A stretch of DNA of 64,000 bases from contig CAVYDB010000047.1 of NCBI GenBank assembly GCA_963767125.1, positions 2,585-66,584 of the forward strand. Direction: 5' to 3'. A model generated the notes under the pieces. It was given only the letters and a program-made list of their open reading frames with translations, searched no databases and had not been told where the DNA came from. Position 1 is the stretch's first letter, and each line of letters begins with the position of its first letter. Shown here in pieces: positions 14,709 through 58,977 of the stretch. Position numbers and translations under genes: made by a program. Origin of the DNA: an uncultured Bacteroidota bacterium. GTDB taxonomy: Bacteria; Bacteroidota; Bacteroidia; JABEUT01.

Positions 14709-15026
14709 ATGTCTATTCATAAAAAGTGGTCAAATTACACCAGAAAAAACGCTTCCGCAGAACCTGAAAATTATGGTGTTTACGAAATTGGCGATATTGA
14801 AACTGGGGCAATTTTATATATTGGAGAAGGTAATATACGTTCAGGTTTATTAGCACATACTCCTGATGGAGGAAAGAATAAACATGTTTCAATATTCGGC
14901 ACTTCTATTGTAGGCTTATATGGTTACCGTTTTGAGGTTACTGATACCCGGGAAAAAGCTAAGCTAAGACAAAAAGAATTATTAAAGGACTTTCAAAAAG
15001 ACCTATCATTCCCTTCCTCGTTTTAA
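14709..15026 (+). CDS. Small divergent GIY-YIG-like protein
   Basis: GVY-x10-YIG motif (YGVYEIGDIETGAILYIGEG); residues at the usual catalytic Arg and Glu positions are not clearly conserved. Confidence 0.55.
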   Translation: MSIHKKWSNYTRKNASAEPENYGVYEIGDIETGAILYIGEGNIRSGLLAHTPDGGKNKHVSIFGTSIVGLYGYRFEVTDTREKAKLRQKELLKDFQKDLSFPSSF

Positions 15027-15179
15027 CCAAAAACAGGAGAAGTCAGCTACCCCGGTGTTTATATAATTGTTGCTGTTATTTTTCACTTTGTATTCTCGCT
15101 TTCTTAATTAAGTGCCATTTTGAGAAATGGCTTTCAACGTTATAGACGTTACCTATCACTTTTAGTTTTCACTGCCTTG

Positions 15180-15307
15180 TGCCCCCGCTAGGAATCCCCG
15201 TCCGAACGGGTCATCCGGGCGGGGAACATAGATCAGAAGTTCCGGAAACTTCCATACTATCCCCGCCCGACTGAATGTCGTTCGGGCAGGCGTTGTACTA
15301 TAAAGCC
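15180..15307 (-). pseudogene. tRNA-Arg(CCG) pseudo-copy with 29-nt D-loop and 27-nt T-loop hairpin insertions; additional T-stem and acceptor mismatches
   Basis: Aligns to tRNA 15940-16011 after removing the two inserts; first 10 nt overlap the end of the GIY-YIG ORF. Confidence 0.85.
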
Positions 15308-15543
15308 TTTAGTTTCTTTTGTAGAAATCTTCTTCCTGCTGCCGATTTAAAATATTTTTCGCGATTAATAGCCTCCTCCCTTGATTCAAATTCTTCTGAA
15401 TAACTTATTTTAAAGGGAATAAAGGGTTTTATTGAGGATGTCTTCCCTGAATTGTGTTCCTTTAATCTTATTTCAAGATTCTCGCAATGTCCTTTGTAAA
15501 AGTATTCATGGTTAAGGCTTTTTAAAACATACGCATAAAACAT
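15298..15543 (-). CDS. Stand-alone GIY-YIG nuclease (YhbQ/UPF0213-like), copy 2
   Basis: Y3-A-Y5, Y16-K-G18, R26 (RLKEHN), E62 (AINREKYFKS). Confidence 0.9.
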   Translation of the reverse strand: MFYAYVLKSLNHEYFYKGHCENLEIRLKEHNSGKTSSIKPFIPFKISYSEEFESREEAINREKYFKSAAGRRFLQKKLKAL

Positions 15544-15559
15544 TTTAAAGGTTTTAATG

Positions 15560-15687
15560 TGGCCCCGCTAGGAATCCCCGTCCGAACGGGTCATCCGGGC
15601 GGGGAACCTAGATCAGAAGTTCCGGAAACTTCCATACTATCCCCGCCCGACTGAATGTCGTTCGGGCAGGCGTTGTACTATAAAACC
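15560..15687 (-). pseudogene. tRNA-Arg(CCG) pseudo-copy with 29-nt D-loop and 27-nt T-loop hairpin insertions
   Basis: Identical to the intact tRNA from position 8 onward apart from the two inserts. Confidence 0.85.
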
Positions 15688-15923
15688 TTTAGTTTCTTTT
15701 GTAGAAATCTTCTTCCTGCTGCCGATTTAAAATATTTTTCGCGATTAATAGCCTCCTCCCTTGATTCAAATTCTTCTGAATAACTTATTTTAAAGGGAAT
15801 AAAGGGTTTTATTGAGGATGTCTTCCCTGAATTGTGTTCCTTTAATCTTATTTCAAGATTCTCGCAATGTCCTTTGTAAAAGTATTCATGGTTAAGGCTT
15901 TTTAAAACATAAGCATAAAACAT
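15678..15923 (-). CDS. Stand-alone GIY-YIG nuclease (YhbQ/UPF0213-like), copy 1
   Basis: 80/81 aa identical to copy 2; ATG lies 16 nt after the tRNA discriminator base. Confidence 0.9.
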   Translation of the reverse strand: MFYAYVLKSLNHEYFYKGHCENLEIRLKEHNSGKTSSIKPFIPFKISYSEEFESREEAINREKYFKSAAGRRFLQKKLKVL

Positions 15924-15939
15924 TCTAAAGATTTTAATG

Positions 15940-16011
15940 TGGCCCCGCTAGGAATCGAACCTAGATCAGAAGTTCCGGAAACTTCCATACTATCCGTTGT
16001 ACTACAGAGCC
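15940..16011 (-). tRNA. tRNA-Arg(CCG), 72 nt, CCA not encoded
   Basis: Cloverleaf folded by hand: acceptor GGCTCTG/CGGGGCC, D arm GTAC/GTAT, anticodon arm GAAGT-TTCCGGA-ACTTC, T arm CTAGG-TTCGATT-CCTAG. Confidence 0.95.
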
Positions 16012-16715
16012 AATTTTTTAAAGGATTGTAAAAATAGAAAGAATTTATAATTTTAATAAAATGACAGTAAAAAGAGTTTCGTAAACTTTCATACTATCCC
16101 CGCCCGACTGAACGTCGTTCGGGCAGGCGTTGTACTACAGAGCCAATTTTTTAAAGGATTGTAAAAATAGAAAGAATTTATAATTTTAATAAAATGACAG
16201 TAAAAAGAGTTTCGTAAACTTTCATACTATCCCCGCCCGACTGAACGTCGTTCGGGCAGGCGTTGTACTACAGAGCCAATTTTTTAAAGGATTGTAAAAA
16301 TAGAAAGAATTTATAATTTTAATAAAATGACAGTAAAAAGAGTTTCGTAAACTTTCATACTATCCCCGCCCGACTGAACGTCGTTCGGGCAGGCGTTGTA
16401 CTACAGAGCCAATTTTTTAAAGGATTGTAAAAATAGAAAGAATTTATAATTTTAATAAAATGACAGTAAAAAGAGTTTCGTAAACTTTCATACTATCCCC
16501 GCCCGACTGAACGTCGTTCGGGCAGGCGTTGTATTACAGAGCCAATTTTTTAAAGGATTGTAAAAATAGAAGGATTTTATAATTTTAATAAAATGACAGT
16601 GAAAAGAGTTTCGCAAACTTTCATACTATCCCCGCCCGACTGAACGTCGTTCGGGCAGGCGTTGTACTACAGAGCCAATTTTTTAAAGGATTGTAAAAAT
16701 AGAAAGAATTTATAA
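16012..16715 (-). repeat. Tandem array of five 133-bp units plus a 39-bp partial unit; each unit is the tRNA upstream region plus a tRNA-Arg 5' half with D-loop insert
   Basis: Unit ends (agagcc) at 16144, 16277, 16410, 16543, 16676; units 1-3 identical, five substitutions confined to 16534-16614. Confidence 0.95.
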
Positions 16716-16725
16716 GTGGATTTTT

Positions 16726-19700
16726 CTATTCTTCATCTTCAACCTCATGTAACGCAACATGCAAGTGATTATCTTTTACAAAATTGCACCATTGGCAATC
16801 TTCCTTACCGCATCCTTTACTAAATTCATGGTTTTGTATTTTTTGCCAGGTATCGGTAATTTGGTCAAGAACTATGGCAATATCTTCCTTACTTATAATT
16901 ATTTTCTCTGCTTTATATTCGTCTTTTACCGGCTCTATAAAATCAAACTCAGCACTAATGGCATCCCAATCATTATATTTCTGATTATCTAATAATATTT
17001 TATAGAATACTGCCTGTCTCCAATAATCGCCCCCAACGGTGTCATCACCAATGGGTCCTTTTAGTTTCTTTCTGGCATTATGCATATCTGCCGGTCTTAT
17101 AATCCACCACGTTTACTTTTTTACCATCAAATTCAAGCTTATCTAACTTACCATTCAGGGGCACTCCTTCAACTTCCACATTACGGATATTCTTCTCCAG
17201 AATTACAATCTTATTCCACTTTTTAATGTAAAAGTTATAATAAGGTGGCAATATTTTATCACCATATTCCAGTCTGCGGTTATATTGTTCTTTAGTAAAT
17301 GATTCTCTATTACGATACATAAACCGCCTGAAATCATCCATCATTTTCTCTTTAGATGGAAATATGTTGCCTTGAGCTTTCATCTTCTCAAACAAAGCCT
17401 GTAACGTAGAGTGTACTGCACTCCCAAATGCCATTGACTCTCCTTTGGCAGCAGGCACTCTAATTAAATTCTGATAGTAAAATTTAATCGGGCAATCCAA
17501 GTAATTATTCAGATGGGTTACACTTAAAGAATAATTTTGAAGTAAACTATCTAAATAGTTTTTATCAACCAATTCTATTTGAGGTACAGCCTTGGCAGTA
17601 TATTGTAATTCGAGGTATTTAATAAGTATGTTTTCCTCCGCCTTTTCTTCTTTTACTTCAATACTTGTTCCTTCCATAATCTCCCCTACAAAGGCAGAAC
17701 GCTCCATCCCCTTATTCTTATTTTCATTATCCTGTACCGAATATGAAATTGTAAGGTGTGTTTTAGCCCTGGTCATAGCAACATAAAAAAGCCTCCTTGC
17801 TTCTTCCAATTCATTTACCTCATATTTTTCAGAGGAGAAATTATCGGGCAATTTAAACTCATACTGGGAAGAAGATTTTTTATCATCCCAGATATTTTTA
17901 TTACAGCCAATTAAAAATACGTATTCATATTCTGTGCCCTTGGAGCCATGAGCAGTAACAAGATTAACCCCATCAGCGGTGGAAGACACTTTTACCAAAT
18001 CGAGCCGGATACGATTGTTCTGCATGGTTTCAATCATGTCGAGTAATCGTTGCAAGCTGATGGATGGGTCTTTATGGGTTTCCCCTTTTATAAAATCAAA
18101 CAGACCAGTAATAACCTGCATCAGCCAGGGCTTTTCGTCAGAATTTAAAACATAGTTCAATATTCCTGCCTCACGCACCACTTCTTCAAATAAGCCCTGT
18201 AAAGTAAGATTCGGCGAGGCTTTAATAAGGCTTTCCAATATATTACTAACTCTTTTTATTTCACTTACTTCCTCCGTACTGAATAAATCGGGCTTGGACG
18301 AACTCCCCTCTTCACTGATAGCACGGCGAATTGATGTTCTCTCATTGCGGTTACCATAGTTTTTCTGGGCGACCTGCAAGCTTAATCTTGCTATATCAAT
18401 GGCCGGAATAGTAAAGAAATCAAAATGCAAAATTTCAAATAGCATTTCATCTCCGCTATATGCCACATCTATTTCTGCGGCAATAAATTCAAGGATTTTA
18501 AGTATTTTATGAACGAATGGCAATTCCAATAAATTCACATTCCGTTTCATATTGTAGCTAATGCTCTTCTTGTCTAAGTAGCCTGATAGCTCGTCCACCT
18601 GCTTATGGTTACGGTATATAACTGCAATTTCAGAAGGGTCTATTTTGTCTTTAACAAGTAATTCTTCTATTTTATGCGCAATACATATTGTTTCATTAGA
18701 AGGATTGGGATACTCGATAATTTGGGGTAGTATTTTTAAATCCTTCACTACAGGATTGGAAGCAACTAAGTTTTTATCCTGAGACACCCTCTCTTTATTA
18801 TGCTCAATAAGGACTTTCGCAGCATCTAATACAGCCTGGGTAGAGCGATAGTTTTCTGTCAATACCACTTTGAAAAGCAGGCTGGAATACTCGTTGGCAA
18901 AACCACGAATATTTTCCACGTTCGCATCCTGAAAAGAAAATATAGATTGGTCATCATCACCCACCACAAACACATTCGGGGCATCCCAATAATGGATAAG
19001 ATGCTCGAGTAATTTCTTTTGCGAGCCGCTTGTATCCTGGAATTCATCTACCAAAAAATATAAAAACCGCTCCTGGTAATTGAGCAGAATATTATTGTTT
19101 TCTTCAAAGGCTTTCAGCACCCACAAAATCATATCATCAAAGGTGTATCGCCCTCTCTCTTGCATCATTTCATCATAGGTAGGGTACAGATTAACTGCTT
19201 CCCGCAGTTTTTCCATTCTTTCTTTTTCCTCTTTTATCCTATCTTCATTCGGCTCTCCTGCCTTATATTCCTTGTAATTTCTTTTATAAAAAAATCCATC
19301 TTTACCAGGGAGTTCTGCCAAATAAGCATCTATTCTCCCATTCAAAAATTCCAATGTCCATGCTTCTTTTTTTATCAGTGAAAAAAGATTCTTCACTTTG
19401 GGTATTTCATAATTTACTTCACCTTTAAATCTCTTTAGCAGGCTATCATTTGGAAGGTTGCTTAATAATTCCTTGAATAATTCTATTTCCTCTAACTCTG
19501 AAATAGCTTCTAAATTTTGCCTGCCGAAATAAGAGAGATTATCTTGAATCACCTCATTACAAAATGAATGAAAAGTGTGAATATTTACCCTATAAGCTGC
19601 CGGTCCTATGAGCTTGAATAGCCTGTTACGCATTTCAACCCTTCCGGTATCGGTATAAGTAAGACAAAGAATGCTATGTGGGGGAGTGTCGGTCTGCTGC

Positions 19701-19864
19701 AATATTTTACCTATCCGCGTAGCCAGAATTTGGGTCTTTCCGGTTCCCGGTCCTGCTATAACAAGCACAGGTCCCTCGATGTGTTCAACAGCCTGGCGTT
19801 GGGCTTCATTAAGCTTTTGAAAAGCCCTTGTGAAAGCTAAATCAACTAATTTATTATTCATCAT
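16726..19864 (-). CDS. UvrD/PcrA-type SF1 helicase fused to PD-(D/E)xK nuclease (AdnAB/AddA-like); one +1 frameshift near 17085
   Basis: AGPGTGKT, VDEFQD, VGDDDQSI, TAHGSKGTE, EARRLFYVAMTRAK; nuclease motifs GKLDKLE and VVDYKTG; continuation ORF 16726-17085 has QAVFY and CGKEDCQWC. Confidence 0.85.
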
Positions 19865-40213: not shown

Positions 40214-40344
40214 CTAACGCTTCCCCCTTCGGGGGGAAGATGGTTAGGGGTAGTACAAACCTAACGCTTCCCCCTTCGGGGGGAAGTTAGTTAGGCCTGC
40301 ACAAATGTAACGCTTCCCCACTTGGGGGGAAGAAGGTTAGGGGT
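40214..40344. repeat. Three tandem 46-47 bp REP-like palindromes (core CTTCCCCC-TTC-GGGGGGAAG)
   Basis: TAACGCTTCCCC starts at 40215, 40262 and 40308; outer CTAAC/GTTAG arms. Confidence 0.85.
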
Positions 40345-40478
40345 TTCCGGTTATTTTGTATTTTGAATAACTTTTACCTATACTTAGCTATACTAAAAAC
40401 ACCCTCTGAAACCCAATAGGGACACAGCATTCGGGGAATTGACTCATAACCATGCACTTAAGTAGTCTGATTTTATGC

Positions 40479-40564
40479 CCCGCCCGAATGTCAGCCCGAA
40501 AGATTCCTGCCCCAAAGGTGAGGTTAGGCGGGCATTCTGGAGGGTACCATCCGGTACGGGCGGG
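40479..40564. repeat. Three nested GC-rich mini-hairpin elements
   Basis: Outer CCCGCCCG...CGGGCGGG perfect 8-bp stem; inner 27-nt CCTGCC...GGCGGG at 40506-40532. Confidence 0.7.
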
Positions 40565-40610
40565 CGTTTTATGCCGTTTATTTGAGTGTGGTCTTTTTGC
40601 CGAAGAGTTT

Positions 40611-56805: not shown

Positions 56806-58977
56806 ATGAAAAAGAATTTTATTCTCTTATTTGTATTGGTTTGTTTAGGAAGTATAGAAACTACGGCACAATATAGATATACCGTTCTGCATTATTTCAA
56901 TGATTCTGCAGGAGGCAACCCTAAAGGTGCATTAACTCTATCTAATGGAGTTTTATATGGAATGACAAGAGCCGGCGGTGCAAATCATGACGGAATAATA
57001 TTCTCTATGGATACTGCCGGTACCATCTATACCGACTTGATGGATTTCAATGGAATAAATGGCTCAAGTGCGGAAGGCTCATTAACTTTCTCCCGGAGCA
57101 CCATGTTTGGAATGACCTCTCTGGGAGGAGCCAGTGGTAAAGGTTGTATTTTCAAAATATTAACCAATGGCAGCGGATATGCTGACTTGCTTGATTTTGA
57201 TTCTGCCAATGGCGCTAACCCACAGGATAATGTTACCTTATCAGGTAATAAAATGTATGGAATGACTTTAAATGGAGGGGCACATAACTGCGGGCTTATT
57301 TTTTCGATTGATACCAATGGGGCTAATTATGTTGACCTGCTTGATTTCGACACAGCCAACGGAGCATACCCCTATGGTTCTCTAACCCTTGCAGGTAATG
57401 TATTATATGGTACGGCATCCTTAGGAGGAGACTCTGTTAACGGTTGCGTATTTTCAGTTCATATTGATGGTTCAAACTATAAAATTATGCATAGTTTTAG
57501 TGGAATACGGGGCAGCAGACCTTACGACCCTGTGGGCTCTTTACTGCTTGCCAAAAATATGTTATATGGCATGACCAGGCGAAATTATGCCCTTAATCCC
57601 TGGGGTAACAATGGTGCCATTTTTAAAATAGATACCAATGGAAATACATTTACTGAAATGGCAGATCCAAATGCACTGCCGCAGGGTTCATTCATACTGA
57701 AAGATAGCGTACTTTACAGCATGACACCAACGAATGCCGGGAGTAACTTATATCCGCACTTTGAGGCGGGAGATGTTTTCTCAATAGATACTGGTGGAGG
57801 TGGTTACGAGAGCATTCATGGTTTTATAAGACATGGATACCTGGGCGATGGAGGATGCAAGTCGCTGACACTGGCAACGAATGGATTTTATGGTATGACT
57901 ATGAATGGCGCTGACAGTACCAGTAGAATTTACACTGGTAGCGGAGTCATTTTTAAATTGGTAGATACCGGTGTTTATTATCCACAGGTAACTATGAGCA
58001 TCCACAATGTTTCATGCAACGGAGGCAGTAATGGAACAGCAATTGCCAGTGTAAGCGGTGGATTTTCTCCTTATACTTACTTCTGGCAGCCAAGTGGAAA
58101 TTCTACCGATAGTATAGGCGGGCTGAGTGCCGGAACTTATACTCTTTCTGTAACTGGAAATAATGATTCAACTACCAATGTTTATGTTACCATAACACAA
58201 CCGGCAATATTGAATCCACTAGGCTATATTATTGCCAATGTATCTTGCAATGGTGGAAATAATGGTATTGATTCTGTTTCAGGGAATGGCGGTGCATCTC
58301 CCTTTACCTATCTCTGGAACGATGCCAATAGCCAAACTACAGCCACGGCTATCGGGCTAAGTGCAGGAACTTATACAGTTAGTGTTTCTGATTCTTGCGG
58401 TAATTCTGCCACAACATCTGTTATAATAACACAACCAATAGCCCTGACTATGATGGCAGATTCATCTGACGCCACATCCGGAAATTGTGATGGTTCCGCA
58501 TGGGTTATAGTCAATGGAGGCACAACCCCCTATACCTATTCATGGACGGGAGGACTTACTACCGATACCATATTAAACCAGTGTACCGGAGATTATTGCT
58601 GCACAATTGCTGACGTTAACGGATGCATAGATAGTATTTGTGTAAATATTGATGTTTCGACCGGAACCAATCAGTTAGAAGGGGAAAGTGAAAAGGTAAA
58701 AGTTTATCCAAACCCGAATGATGGTCTTTTTACAATTACGCTCGGTCATGCCGAACTTGCCCGCCCGGATGAATCGGTCGGACGGGTTTCGGCATCCCAA
58801 CCTATTGTAAGGATATTTAATGTATTGGGGCAGCAGGTATATTTTGCGACCCTGAAACAAGTTCTGGGTGACAATTTCATTGATATTTCGTCTCAGCCTG
58901 ACGGGGTTTATTTTTATAGAGTATTAAGTGAAACTGGAGGATTAATAGGAGAAGGAAAGCTGGTGATAGTGAAATAA
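56806..58977 (+). CDS. T9SS-secreted protein with tandem G..P.G.L...LYGMT..GG beta-propeller repeats (TIGR03803/GloVer-like) and SprB-like repeats (start moved from 56725)
   Basis: Signal MKKNFILLF preceded by TAATTTTG (56781-56788); VSCNGG..G...GG..PYTY.W repeats; VYPNPN...GVYFYRV...GKLVIVK. Confidence 0.85.
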   Translation: MKKNFILLFVLVCLGSIETTAQYRYTVLHYFNDSAGGNPKGALTLSNGVLYGMTRAGGANHDGIIFSMDTAGTIYTDLMDFNGINGSSAEGSLTFSRSTMFGMTSLGGASGKGCIFKILTNGSGYADLLDFDSANGANPQDNVTLSGNKMYGMTLNGGAHNCGLIFSIDTNGANYVDLLDFDTANGAYPYGSLTLAGNVLYGTASLGGDSVNGCVFSVHIDGSNYKIMHSFSGIRGSRPYDPVGSLLLAKNMLYGMTRRNYALNPWGNNGAIFKIDTNGNTFTEMADPNALPQGSFILKDSVLYSMTPTNAGSNLYPHFEAGDVFSIDTGGGGYESIHGFIRHGYLGDGGCKSLTLATNGFYGMTMNGADSTSRIYTGSGVIFKLVDTGVYYPQVTMSIHNVSCNGGSNGTAIASVSGGFSPYTYFWQPSGNSTDSIGGLSAGTYTLSVTGNNDSTTNVYVTITQPAILNPLGYIIANVSCNGGNNGIDSVSGNGGASPFTYLWNDANSQTTATAIGLSAGTYTVSVSDSCGNSATTSVIITQPIALTMMADSSDATSGNCDGSAWVIVNGGTTPYTYSWTGGLTTDTILNQCTGDYCCTIADVNGCIDSICVNIDVSTGTNQLEGESEKVKVYPNPNDGLFTITLGHAELARPDESVGRVSASQPIVRIFNVLGQQVYFATLKQVLGDNFIDISSQPDGVYFYRVLSETGGLIGEGKLVIVK
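58745..58796 (+). repeat. REP-like palindrome GTCATGCCGAACTTG|TTTCGGCATC carrying a 27-nt hairpin insert (58760-58786), translated in frame
   Basis: Insert is 24/27 identical to the tRNA T-loop insert. Confidence 0.8.

Follow-up and report, generated by a model that had tools for sequence, protein, structure and literature searches.

The 133-bp tandem array studied here lies immediately upstream of an intact tRNA-Arg(CCG) gene on contig CAVYDB010000047.1 of an uncultured Bacteroidota bacterium, of which we analyzed a stretch of 64,000 nucleotides (hereafter the window). Our analyses suggest that the array arose from a stump of this tRNA gene, left by a resident nuclease–hairpin system and tandemly amplified by out-of-register recombination that was probably driven by breaks at the D-loop site. 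We would put the probability of this explanation at roughly 60%. The system behind it is, apparently, an undescribed small selfish nuclease cassette that resides in tRNA-Arg genes across Bacteroidota. Its parts would be a GIY-YIG gene that encodes a catalytic domain only and is wedged between tRNA-Arg copies, together with a GC-rich hairpin of about 28 nt, which would occupy the centre of the D loop, between two conserved G's, in nearly all spare copies of the tRNA, and frequently the T-loop centre too.

Tandem Repeats Finder reported the array at 15995–16715 with a period of 133 bp, 5.4 copies, 98% matches and a score of 1407. As assembled, it comprises five full units on the minus strand (16715–16051), after which a sixth copy of the upstream block leads into the intact tRNA-Arg(CCG) gene (15939–16011, minus strand), which was found by ARAGORN and scored 58.6 bits with the Rfam tRNA model; nothing else exceeded the threshold in the Rfam scan. 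Each unit consists of a 39-nt upstream block, 71 nt of tRNA-like sequence (17 + 29-nt insert + 25) and a 23-nt junction. Read from 5′ to 3′, the upstream block is followed by GGCTCTGTAGTACAACG, corresponding to nt 1–17 of the gene, by the 29-nt hairpin CCTGCCCGAACGACGTTCAGTCGGGCGGG, by GATAGTATGAAAGTTTACGAAACTC, a decayed form of gene nt 18–43 with the anticodon ACG, and finally by the junction TTTTTACTGTCATTTTATTAAAA. The initial annotation had given exactly this make-up with the right coordinates. In the unit closest to the intact gene, the hairpin is found at 16099–16127, between gene nt 17 and 18 and hence within the D-loop GG, and in the remaining units at 16232–16260, 16365–16393, 16498–16526 and 16631–16659, always on the minus strand. 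The insert occurs seven times in the window, where no occurrence would be expected by chance.

The units are not all alike. Counted from the distal end, U1 (16583–16715) adjoins the helicase gene upstream, carries private substitutions at 16614 and 16601 and reads GCG at the anticodon position, and U2 (16450–16582) has private substitutions at 16575, 16572 and 16534. U3 (16317–16449), U4 (16184–16316) and U5 (16051–16183) are free of private substitutions and identical to each other, as had been noted before along with the five substitutions clustered within 16534–16614. All units lie on the minus strand. Diverged units are thus the distal ones, and the identical units stand next to the intact gene, whose own 39-nt upstream block (16012–16050, minus strand) is the same as that of U1 and U3–U5. 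When units were compared with the working gene, no difference was seen in the 56 nt 5′ of the hairpin versus four differences in the 26 nt 3′ of it, i.e., nt 18–43 (p = 0.009). Private variants anchor the order flank–U1–U2–(one or more U3-type units)–intact gene, and therefore at least three units are supported and five are assembled, the identical U3-type units not being countable from sequence alone. The joins between array and flanks are unique in the assembly.

Downstream of the intact gene follow two cassettes of 380 bp each (98% identity), both on the minus strand and both made up of an 81-aa GIY-YIG gene and a hairpin-split pseudo-tRNA. The first nuclease open reading frame (ORF; 15678–15923) starts with an ATG 16 nt past the tRNA, and its TAG stop codon is formed by nt 8–10 of the next tRNA copy. 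This copy, pseudo-tRNA 1 (15559–15687), has a mutated acceptor 5′ strand (GGTTTTA) and is split by a D-loop hairpin (15642–15670) and a T-loop hairpin (15577–15603). The second nuclease ORF (15298–15543) differs from the first in one amino acid, and pseudo-tRNA 2 (15179–15307), with the same two hairpins (15262–15290 and 15197–15223), ends the 380-bp repeat. The D-loop hairpin of the cassettes differs from the array hairpin in a single nucleotide, and the T-loop hairpin is a 27-nt insert between TTC and GATTCC. Next to the last pseudo-tRNA, and convergent on it, lies a 105-aa ORF on the plus strand (14709–15026) with a match to DUF7508 (E = 7e-12) and a GVY-x10-YIG motif, which looks like a second, distinct GIY-YIG-like protein.

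The nuclease matches Pfam family PF01541 (E = 4e-13) over residues 1–70 of its 81 residues, and within this short protein no separate DNA-binding domain was found beside the Pfam domain. In 24 homologues, the columns of the catalytic Tyr, Arg, His and Glu are invariant, and more than 1000 close homologues of 77–104 aa exist. Proteins of the Slx1 family have a structure-specific activity. By sequence, the nearest solved structures are of the UPF0213/Slx1 type, PDB 1ywl (E = 8.7e-8) and 1zg2 (E = 1.6e-5). These stand-alone GIY-YIG proteins have the same size and single domain as the protein here; unlike the latter, they have no described tie to tRNA genes or hairpin repeats. Labelling the nuclease tree with the anticodon of the associated tRNA gave 16 changes versus 18–26 in ten shuffles, on an 80-aa alignment that is too short for more, and the nuclease lineages may hence cluster by tRNA target only weakly.

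The association of nuclease, hairpin and tRNA-Arg recurs far beyond this genome. We retrieved 80 loci with 96 GIY-YIG copies from named genomes of Chitinophagaceae, Sphingobacteriales, Cytophagales and others. An intact tRNA-Arg(CCG or CCT) ends 1–37 nt before the ATG in 58 of the 96 copies, and in several of the remaining ones it begins at or just past the stop codon. At the 73 Bacteroidota loci with both the nuclease and an intact tRNA-Arg gene, a GC hairpin interrupts 70 spare tRNA-Arg copies between gene nt 17 and 18; 38 of these copies lie upstream (32 loci) and 32 downstream (31 loci). Just two spare copies have an unsplit D loop, and the working gene is split at none of the 73 loci. Across 401 evenly sampled genomes of the class, the signature of tRNA nt 8–17 followed by the hairpin start occurred in 9 of the 14 that have a close GIY-YIG homologue and in 2 of the 387 that have none (Fisher p = 1.6e-13). 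Nor does the insert support the initial half-tRNA interpretation, being a mobile-type GC hairpin that marks nearly all non-functional tRNA-Arg copies in such loci.

Tandem arrays of stumps recur as well. Two or three upstream stumps are present at 5 of the 73 loci, and the class survey contributed two further arrays. The former (L numbers denote fetched nuclease loci, G numbers genomes and C numbers contigs) are L067 (112 bp × 2), L081 (79 bp × 4), L107 (97 bp × 2) and, with two upstream copies each, L111 and L113; the latter are G219 (110 bp × 2) and G373 (151 bp × 2). Comparable arrays of promoter, stump and hairpin, which the initial annotation had proposed to look for in relatives, are thus found in other families and orders. 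The array here is the largest observed, the maximum elsewhere in the class sample being three copies. In the other arrays, the upstream sequence extends over 21–47 nt and the stump ends at nt 26–43, with all boundaries different, and therefore arrays of different lineages arose independently. Tandem repeats of 333–406 bp on the downstream side are found here and at 7 of the 80 loci.

The source genome (G000) is a metagenome-assembled genome (MAG) of 49 contigs and 79% completeness, and one has to ask whether the array is an assembler loop, a set of strain variants stitched together serially, or a chance, microsatellite-like expansion by neutral slippage that has nothing to do with nuclease and hairpin. 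The three identical units and the many related loci that stop at contig breaks would be in line with this. A search of metagenome contigs for exact matches to the unit junction and to the tRNA with this hairpin subtype retrieved no second assembly. What speaks against an artefact is that the order of the units is anchored by private variants in U1 and U2 and that the flank joins are unique. Single stumps moreover are found in the cultured isolates Niabella hibiscisoli, Agriterribacter humi and Niastella yeongjuensis, so that the stump architecture is not a MAG artefact. With arrays at the same gene in several families and the strong association with the nuclease, we regard an artefact or unrelated slippage as very improbable.

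Within the genus, 14 congeners with the helicase–tRNA locus were compared. The order helicase–promoter–tRNA is kept in all of them, the tRNA being 95–100% identical, and the majority have a plain gene with a single promoter. G002 and G016 each contain one upstream stump with a hairpin at the same D-loop position, cut off near nt 33. In G009, an upstream copy reaches to nt 61; behind it stand the intact gene and then a GIY-YIG gene with a hairpin-split pseudo-tRNA. The stump thus ends near nt 33 in G002 and G016, at nt 61 in G009 and at nt 43 here, and the junctions differ, too. At this tRNA-Arg(CCG) locus, the cassette is present in G000 and G009, and in G017 a GIY-YIG gene starts at the contig end, whereas in G006 a cassette is found at tRNA-Arg(CCT) on a different contig. 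From the remaining congeners, the cassette is absent at the otherwise syntenic site, which amounts to a presence/absence polymorphism. Hairpin load also varies strongly between the congeners (32, 20, 13, 8, 7, 4, down to 0). Loci that bear stumps (G000, G002, G016, G009 and G017) are in hairpin-rich genomes, and plain loci are found where hairpins are few or missing. In the window, the upstream neighbour is a UvrD-type helicase with a PD-(D/E)XK nuclease domain (16726–19864, minus strand), and the array starts ten bases past the end of this gene at 16726. The helicase–nuclease is read in two overlapping ORFs, one of 928 aa and one of 119 aa, that meet at 17078–17085 (minus strand) and divide the nuclease domain between them, reflecting either a frameshift or an assembly error.

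From these observations we infer a break site at the D loop and a sequence of three steps. A partial copy of the gene, comprising promoter, nt 1–43 and hairpin, would first be produced, probably through template switching or faulty repair at the D-loop site, with the 81-aa nuclease as the putative maker of the break. Spare copies would each acquire or inherit the hairpin. The stump would derive from the cassette pseudo-tRNA, again via recombination or template switching; that its hairpin is of the cassette subtype argues for the cassette and against the resident dispersed 27-mer family as its source. The near-palindrome GATAGTATGAAAGTTT-ACG-AAACTCTTTTTACTGTC around the anticodon arm hints at a fold-back at the 3′ boundary of the stump. 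In a second step, unequal crossing-over, or sister-strand repair out of register, would become possible through the 56 bp common to the units and the intact gene (promoter and nt 1–17). If the working gene were broken at its D-loop site, new units would appear at the proximal end of the array, and such growth fits the identical proximal and diverged distal units seen here. The array of L081 is similar in that its distal unit is by far the most diverged, save that two substitutions are also present in the unit nearest the gene. Third, the hairpin heterology would halt conversion tracts. If the hairpin stops conversion in this way, the 5′ side of each unit would stay identical to the working gene and the 3′ side would decay.

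Several points weigh against such a break-driven history. The intact gene has the same D-loop sequence as the gene in cassette-free relatives. A nuclease that cuts at the D loop would also cut its own host, and tolerance has to be assumed. Furthermore, G002 and G016 have a hairpin-split stump and no close GIY-YIG gene nearby, both assemblies being fragmented, and the scheme provides no source for the 23-nt junction. The recurrence of promoter-bearing stumps could finally reflect selection and not mutational bias.

Two related schemes would explain the array by exchange of gene parts. In the first, which we consider rather doubtful, an undescribed class of minimal selfish elements in the tRNA-Arg(CCG/CCT) genes of Bacteroidota, composed of the 81-aa, Slx1/UPF0213-like nuclease and the hairpin of about 28 nt, would replace parts of its host gene. 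The gene would be broken at the D-loop (and T-loop) apex in the DNA, one part would be swapped for a cassette-borne copy and the displaced part would stay behind as a hairpin-capped stump. The array would then be a stratigraphic record of five successive swaps of the promoter and the first 17 nt, and the two 380-bp cassettes would be mirror-image swaps of the 3′ part of the gene. In the second, each unit, read as {hairpin, nt 18–43, junction, promoter, nt 1–17}, would be a non-autonomous cassette for 5′ replacement, inserted serially at nt 17/18; every event would provide a new promoter and 5′ end, and the old ones would remain as a stump. The unit phase indeed matches the hairpin site, the newest, identical units adjoin the intact gene, and a mirror-image cassette {nt 18–73, nuclease gene, nt 1–17, hairpin} would explain the downstream repeats of 333–406 bp; moreover, the junctions in G002 and G016 bring along a perfect −7 box of their own. 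Yet no donor 133-bp unit is found elsewhere in the genome, and the units of other lineages are made of local sequence and not of a common element. By sequence, serial insertion is indistinguishable from break-induced out-of-register repair, and we deem it unlikely.

The array may also have consequences for transcription. TAnnTTTG is the −7 element of the Bacteroidota sigma-A promoter. In the 14 congeners, the sole conserved intergenic block upstream of the tRNA is AAATTCTTnCTAyTTTTrC at about −35 to −13, and in the 39-nt block here it contains TATTTTTA, which has one mismatch to TAnnTTTG, as the initial annotation had pointed out; some congeners match perfectly. Every unit of the array contains this promoter-type block. 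Because each unit thus has the conserved block with a TAnnTTTG-type box, it is plausible that the unit promoters are active and multiply the promoters for tRNA and nuclease. Firing units might produce short junk RNAs, or read-through might add to the expression of the tRNA and the nuclease. The intact genes of G002 and G016 are preceded by a junction that is non-homologous to the ancestral block and yet contains a perfect TAnnTTTG in each genome, where chance would give about 0.03 per 45 nt; this suggests that a working gene behind a stump needs a promoter of its own.

The idea that each unit is a promoter–hairpin–U-tract mini transcription unit for a half-tRNA, however, survives only in its promoter part. 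A terminator scan gave no terminator-like site. Behind the GC hairpin comes GAUAGUAUG and not a U tract, and the TTTTT run forms the 3′ side of an extended AT-rich stem (−8.3 kcal/mol) that encloses the anticodon arm, with AUUUUAUU thereafter. Half-tRNAs of this kind cannot act as tRNAs because they lack the T arm and the 3′ acceptor strand. No gene for a partner 3′ half was found in the genome, the other fragments being the downstream pseudo-tRNAs, which themselves are hairpin-split and have lost the 5′ acceptor strand. Since stump ends and junctions vary between relatives, nt 18–43 are decayed and neither a terminator nor a partner half is found, the units probably do not encode a useful half-tRNA. 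In contrast, the multiplication of promoters, likewise raised at the outset, stands as a real possibility, given that the only block conserved in the 14 congeners is present in each unit.

Could the array hence be maintained for its function, either as working mini transcription units or as six tandem promoters kept to raise the expression of tRNA-Arg(CCG) and GIY-YIG nuclease? The genus-conserved promoter block in all units, the perfect boxes in the non-homologous junctions of G002 and G016 and the similar arrays in other lineages would agree with this, as would the folding of the unit RNA, which is better than that of shuffled sequences (z = −3.8). But the z-score is mostly due to the GC hairpin, and the T run lies within a weak stem with no predicted terminator. 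Even inside the genus, the stumps differ in their ends and junctions, nt 18–43 decay freely, one promoter suffices for most congeners, and any duplication that includes at least 20 upstream nt carries the −7 box automatically. We therefore think it improbable that the array was kept for such a role. The intact gene is a different matter: it is the only tRNA with a CCG anticodon in the assembly, and CGG codons are used regularly (4.5 per 1000 codons). With no other tRNA in the assembly to read CGG, one copy must stay uninterrupted.

Two kinds of hairpin interrupt the tRNA copies here. In this genome, the D-loop subtype is confined to the array units and the downstream cassettes; with one base changed (CCC for CCT at the start), it is found in cassettes of other orders, in the D loop of L088 and in the T loop of L104. 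The T-loop hairpin, in turn, is a member of a dispersed family with 32–35 copies in G000 and the consensus CCCGCCCGGATGAAyCGkTCGGACGGG. Removal of the inserts exactly restores intact D and T loops, with zero duplicated bases at the tRNA insertion sites. At each of the three kinds of tRNA site (D loop, T loop and, in G006, variable loop), GAT follows the hairpin on the 3′ side, whereas solo hairpin copies have a 5′ G in 35 of 35 and TG in 25 of 35 cases, with variable 3′ flanks; a single simple target rule was hence dismissed. Insertions into the T loop at TTC/GATTC were also seen at L104, G280 and G359. The variable-loop insertion (CTTTT/GATGTG) is found in the tRNA-Arg(CCT) cassette L158 (G006, contig C76, reverse strand, about 1290–1400).

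Outside tRNA genes, at 58740–58800, a larger palindrome (ATGCCGAACTTG … TTTCGGCAT) holds a 27-nt hairpin of the resident family in its loop, and about eight such composites exist genome-wide. The hairpins seem to be placed preferentially at the tip of other stem-loops, as in the tRNA D and T loops. Further hairpin-containing repeats were seen in the window. A 47-bp tandem repeat of 2.8 copies at 40214–40344 contains the hairpin CTTCCCCCTTCGGGGGGAAG in each unit, and at 40400–40590 a dispersed-repeat copy (CTCTGAAACCC..AGGGACACAG ... CGTTTTATGCCGTTT) surrounds nested CCCGCCCG-type hairpins, with sister copies in G000 at C1:83.8 kb and C7:331.8 kb. For their tRNA- or GIY-like edges, the hairpins at C1:83.9 kb and C7:331.9 kb were considered as further cassette relics, yet they proved to be members of another dispersed repeat. 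G000 also encodes three RAYT-like Y1 transposases (PF01797; C3:26948–27292, C13:53648–53992 and C1:32779–33117). Each of these genes is flanked by its own unrelated REP-like hairpins, and Y1 transposases as mobilizers of the hairpins studied here were dismissed for now. As a side observation on tRNA genes, ARAGORN called a 'tRNA-Stop (tta)' at C31:49064–49141, just past tRNA-Ile and tRNA-Ala, perhaps a miscall, perhaps a suppressor-like tRNA.

Several known systems share single features with the one proposed here. SegB of phage T4 is likewise a GIY-YIG gene among tRNA genes and outside introns, its presence varies between related genomes as it does here, and a motif there equals one of the two hairpin insertion places in spare tRNA copies here (PMC2330249). 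SegB, however, comes from a phage and has an additional DNA-binding region, whereas the protein here, a putative nuclease, is chromosomal and has 81 aa with the catalytic domain only; the Seg system also has neither a hairpin element nor a pseudo-tRNA, both of which are present here. With REP/REPIN–RAYT systems, the hairpins have in common that they are short, imperfect GC palindromes in tens of copies, with no target duplication, a load that varies between congeners and a fixed 5′ flanking base. They differ in that they sit in the loops of tRNA arms and palindromes and track the GIY-YIG gene and not Y1_Tnp, and a strict REP/RAYT system was ruled out because the three Y1 genes are flanked by other hairpins. 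Given the missing target-site duplication, they are not miniature inverted-repeat transposable elements, either. As in integrase-type islands, an intact tRNA is found at one end and a partial copy at the other, with tandem accretion at one tRNA locus. Here, in contrast, no integrase is present, the units measure 133–380 bp and not kilobases, and partial copies are 5′ as well as 3′ and each hairpin-split; with no integrase and units below 1 kb, an integrase island was ruled out. Split tRNAs of the Nanoarchaeum type also have a separately promoted 5′ half, but here there is no matching 3′ half or complementary joining sequence, and the halves are hairpin-split, decayed and accompanied by an intact gene. 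On anatomical grounds, half-tRNA, group I intron and bulge-helix-bulge intron readings were all ruled out. In the literature on GIY-YIG genes at tRNA genes, tRNA-Arg or UPF0213 in Bacteroidetes, and on palindromes in tRNA D loops, we found no description of the system.

If our interpretation is correct, an essential single-copy tRNA gene would be the long-term battlefield of a very small nuclease–hairpin element, in which a system built on a nuclease of about 80 aa repeatedly breaks, rebuilds and pads the gene. This would account for the tiny genes annotated as 'GIY-YIG nuclease family protein', the tRNA fragments and the contig breaks near tRNA-Arg in Bacteroidota. It would also offer a natural setting in which to study break-induced tandem amplification and hairpin-targeted insertion, and harmless cultured carriers are available in Niastella, Niabella and Agriterribacter. 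Genes for functional half-tRNAs would be the more important finding, which the evidence, however, does not favour. The chief interest of the array hence lies in the system it exposes.

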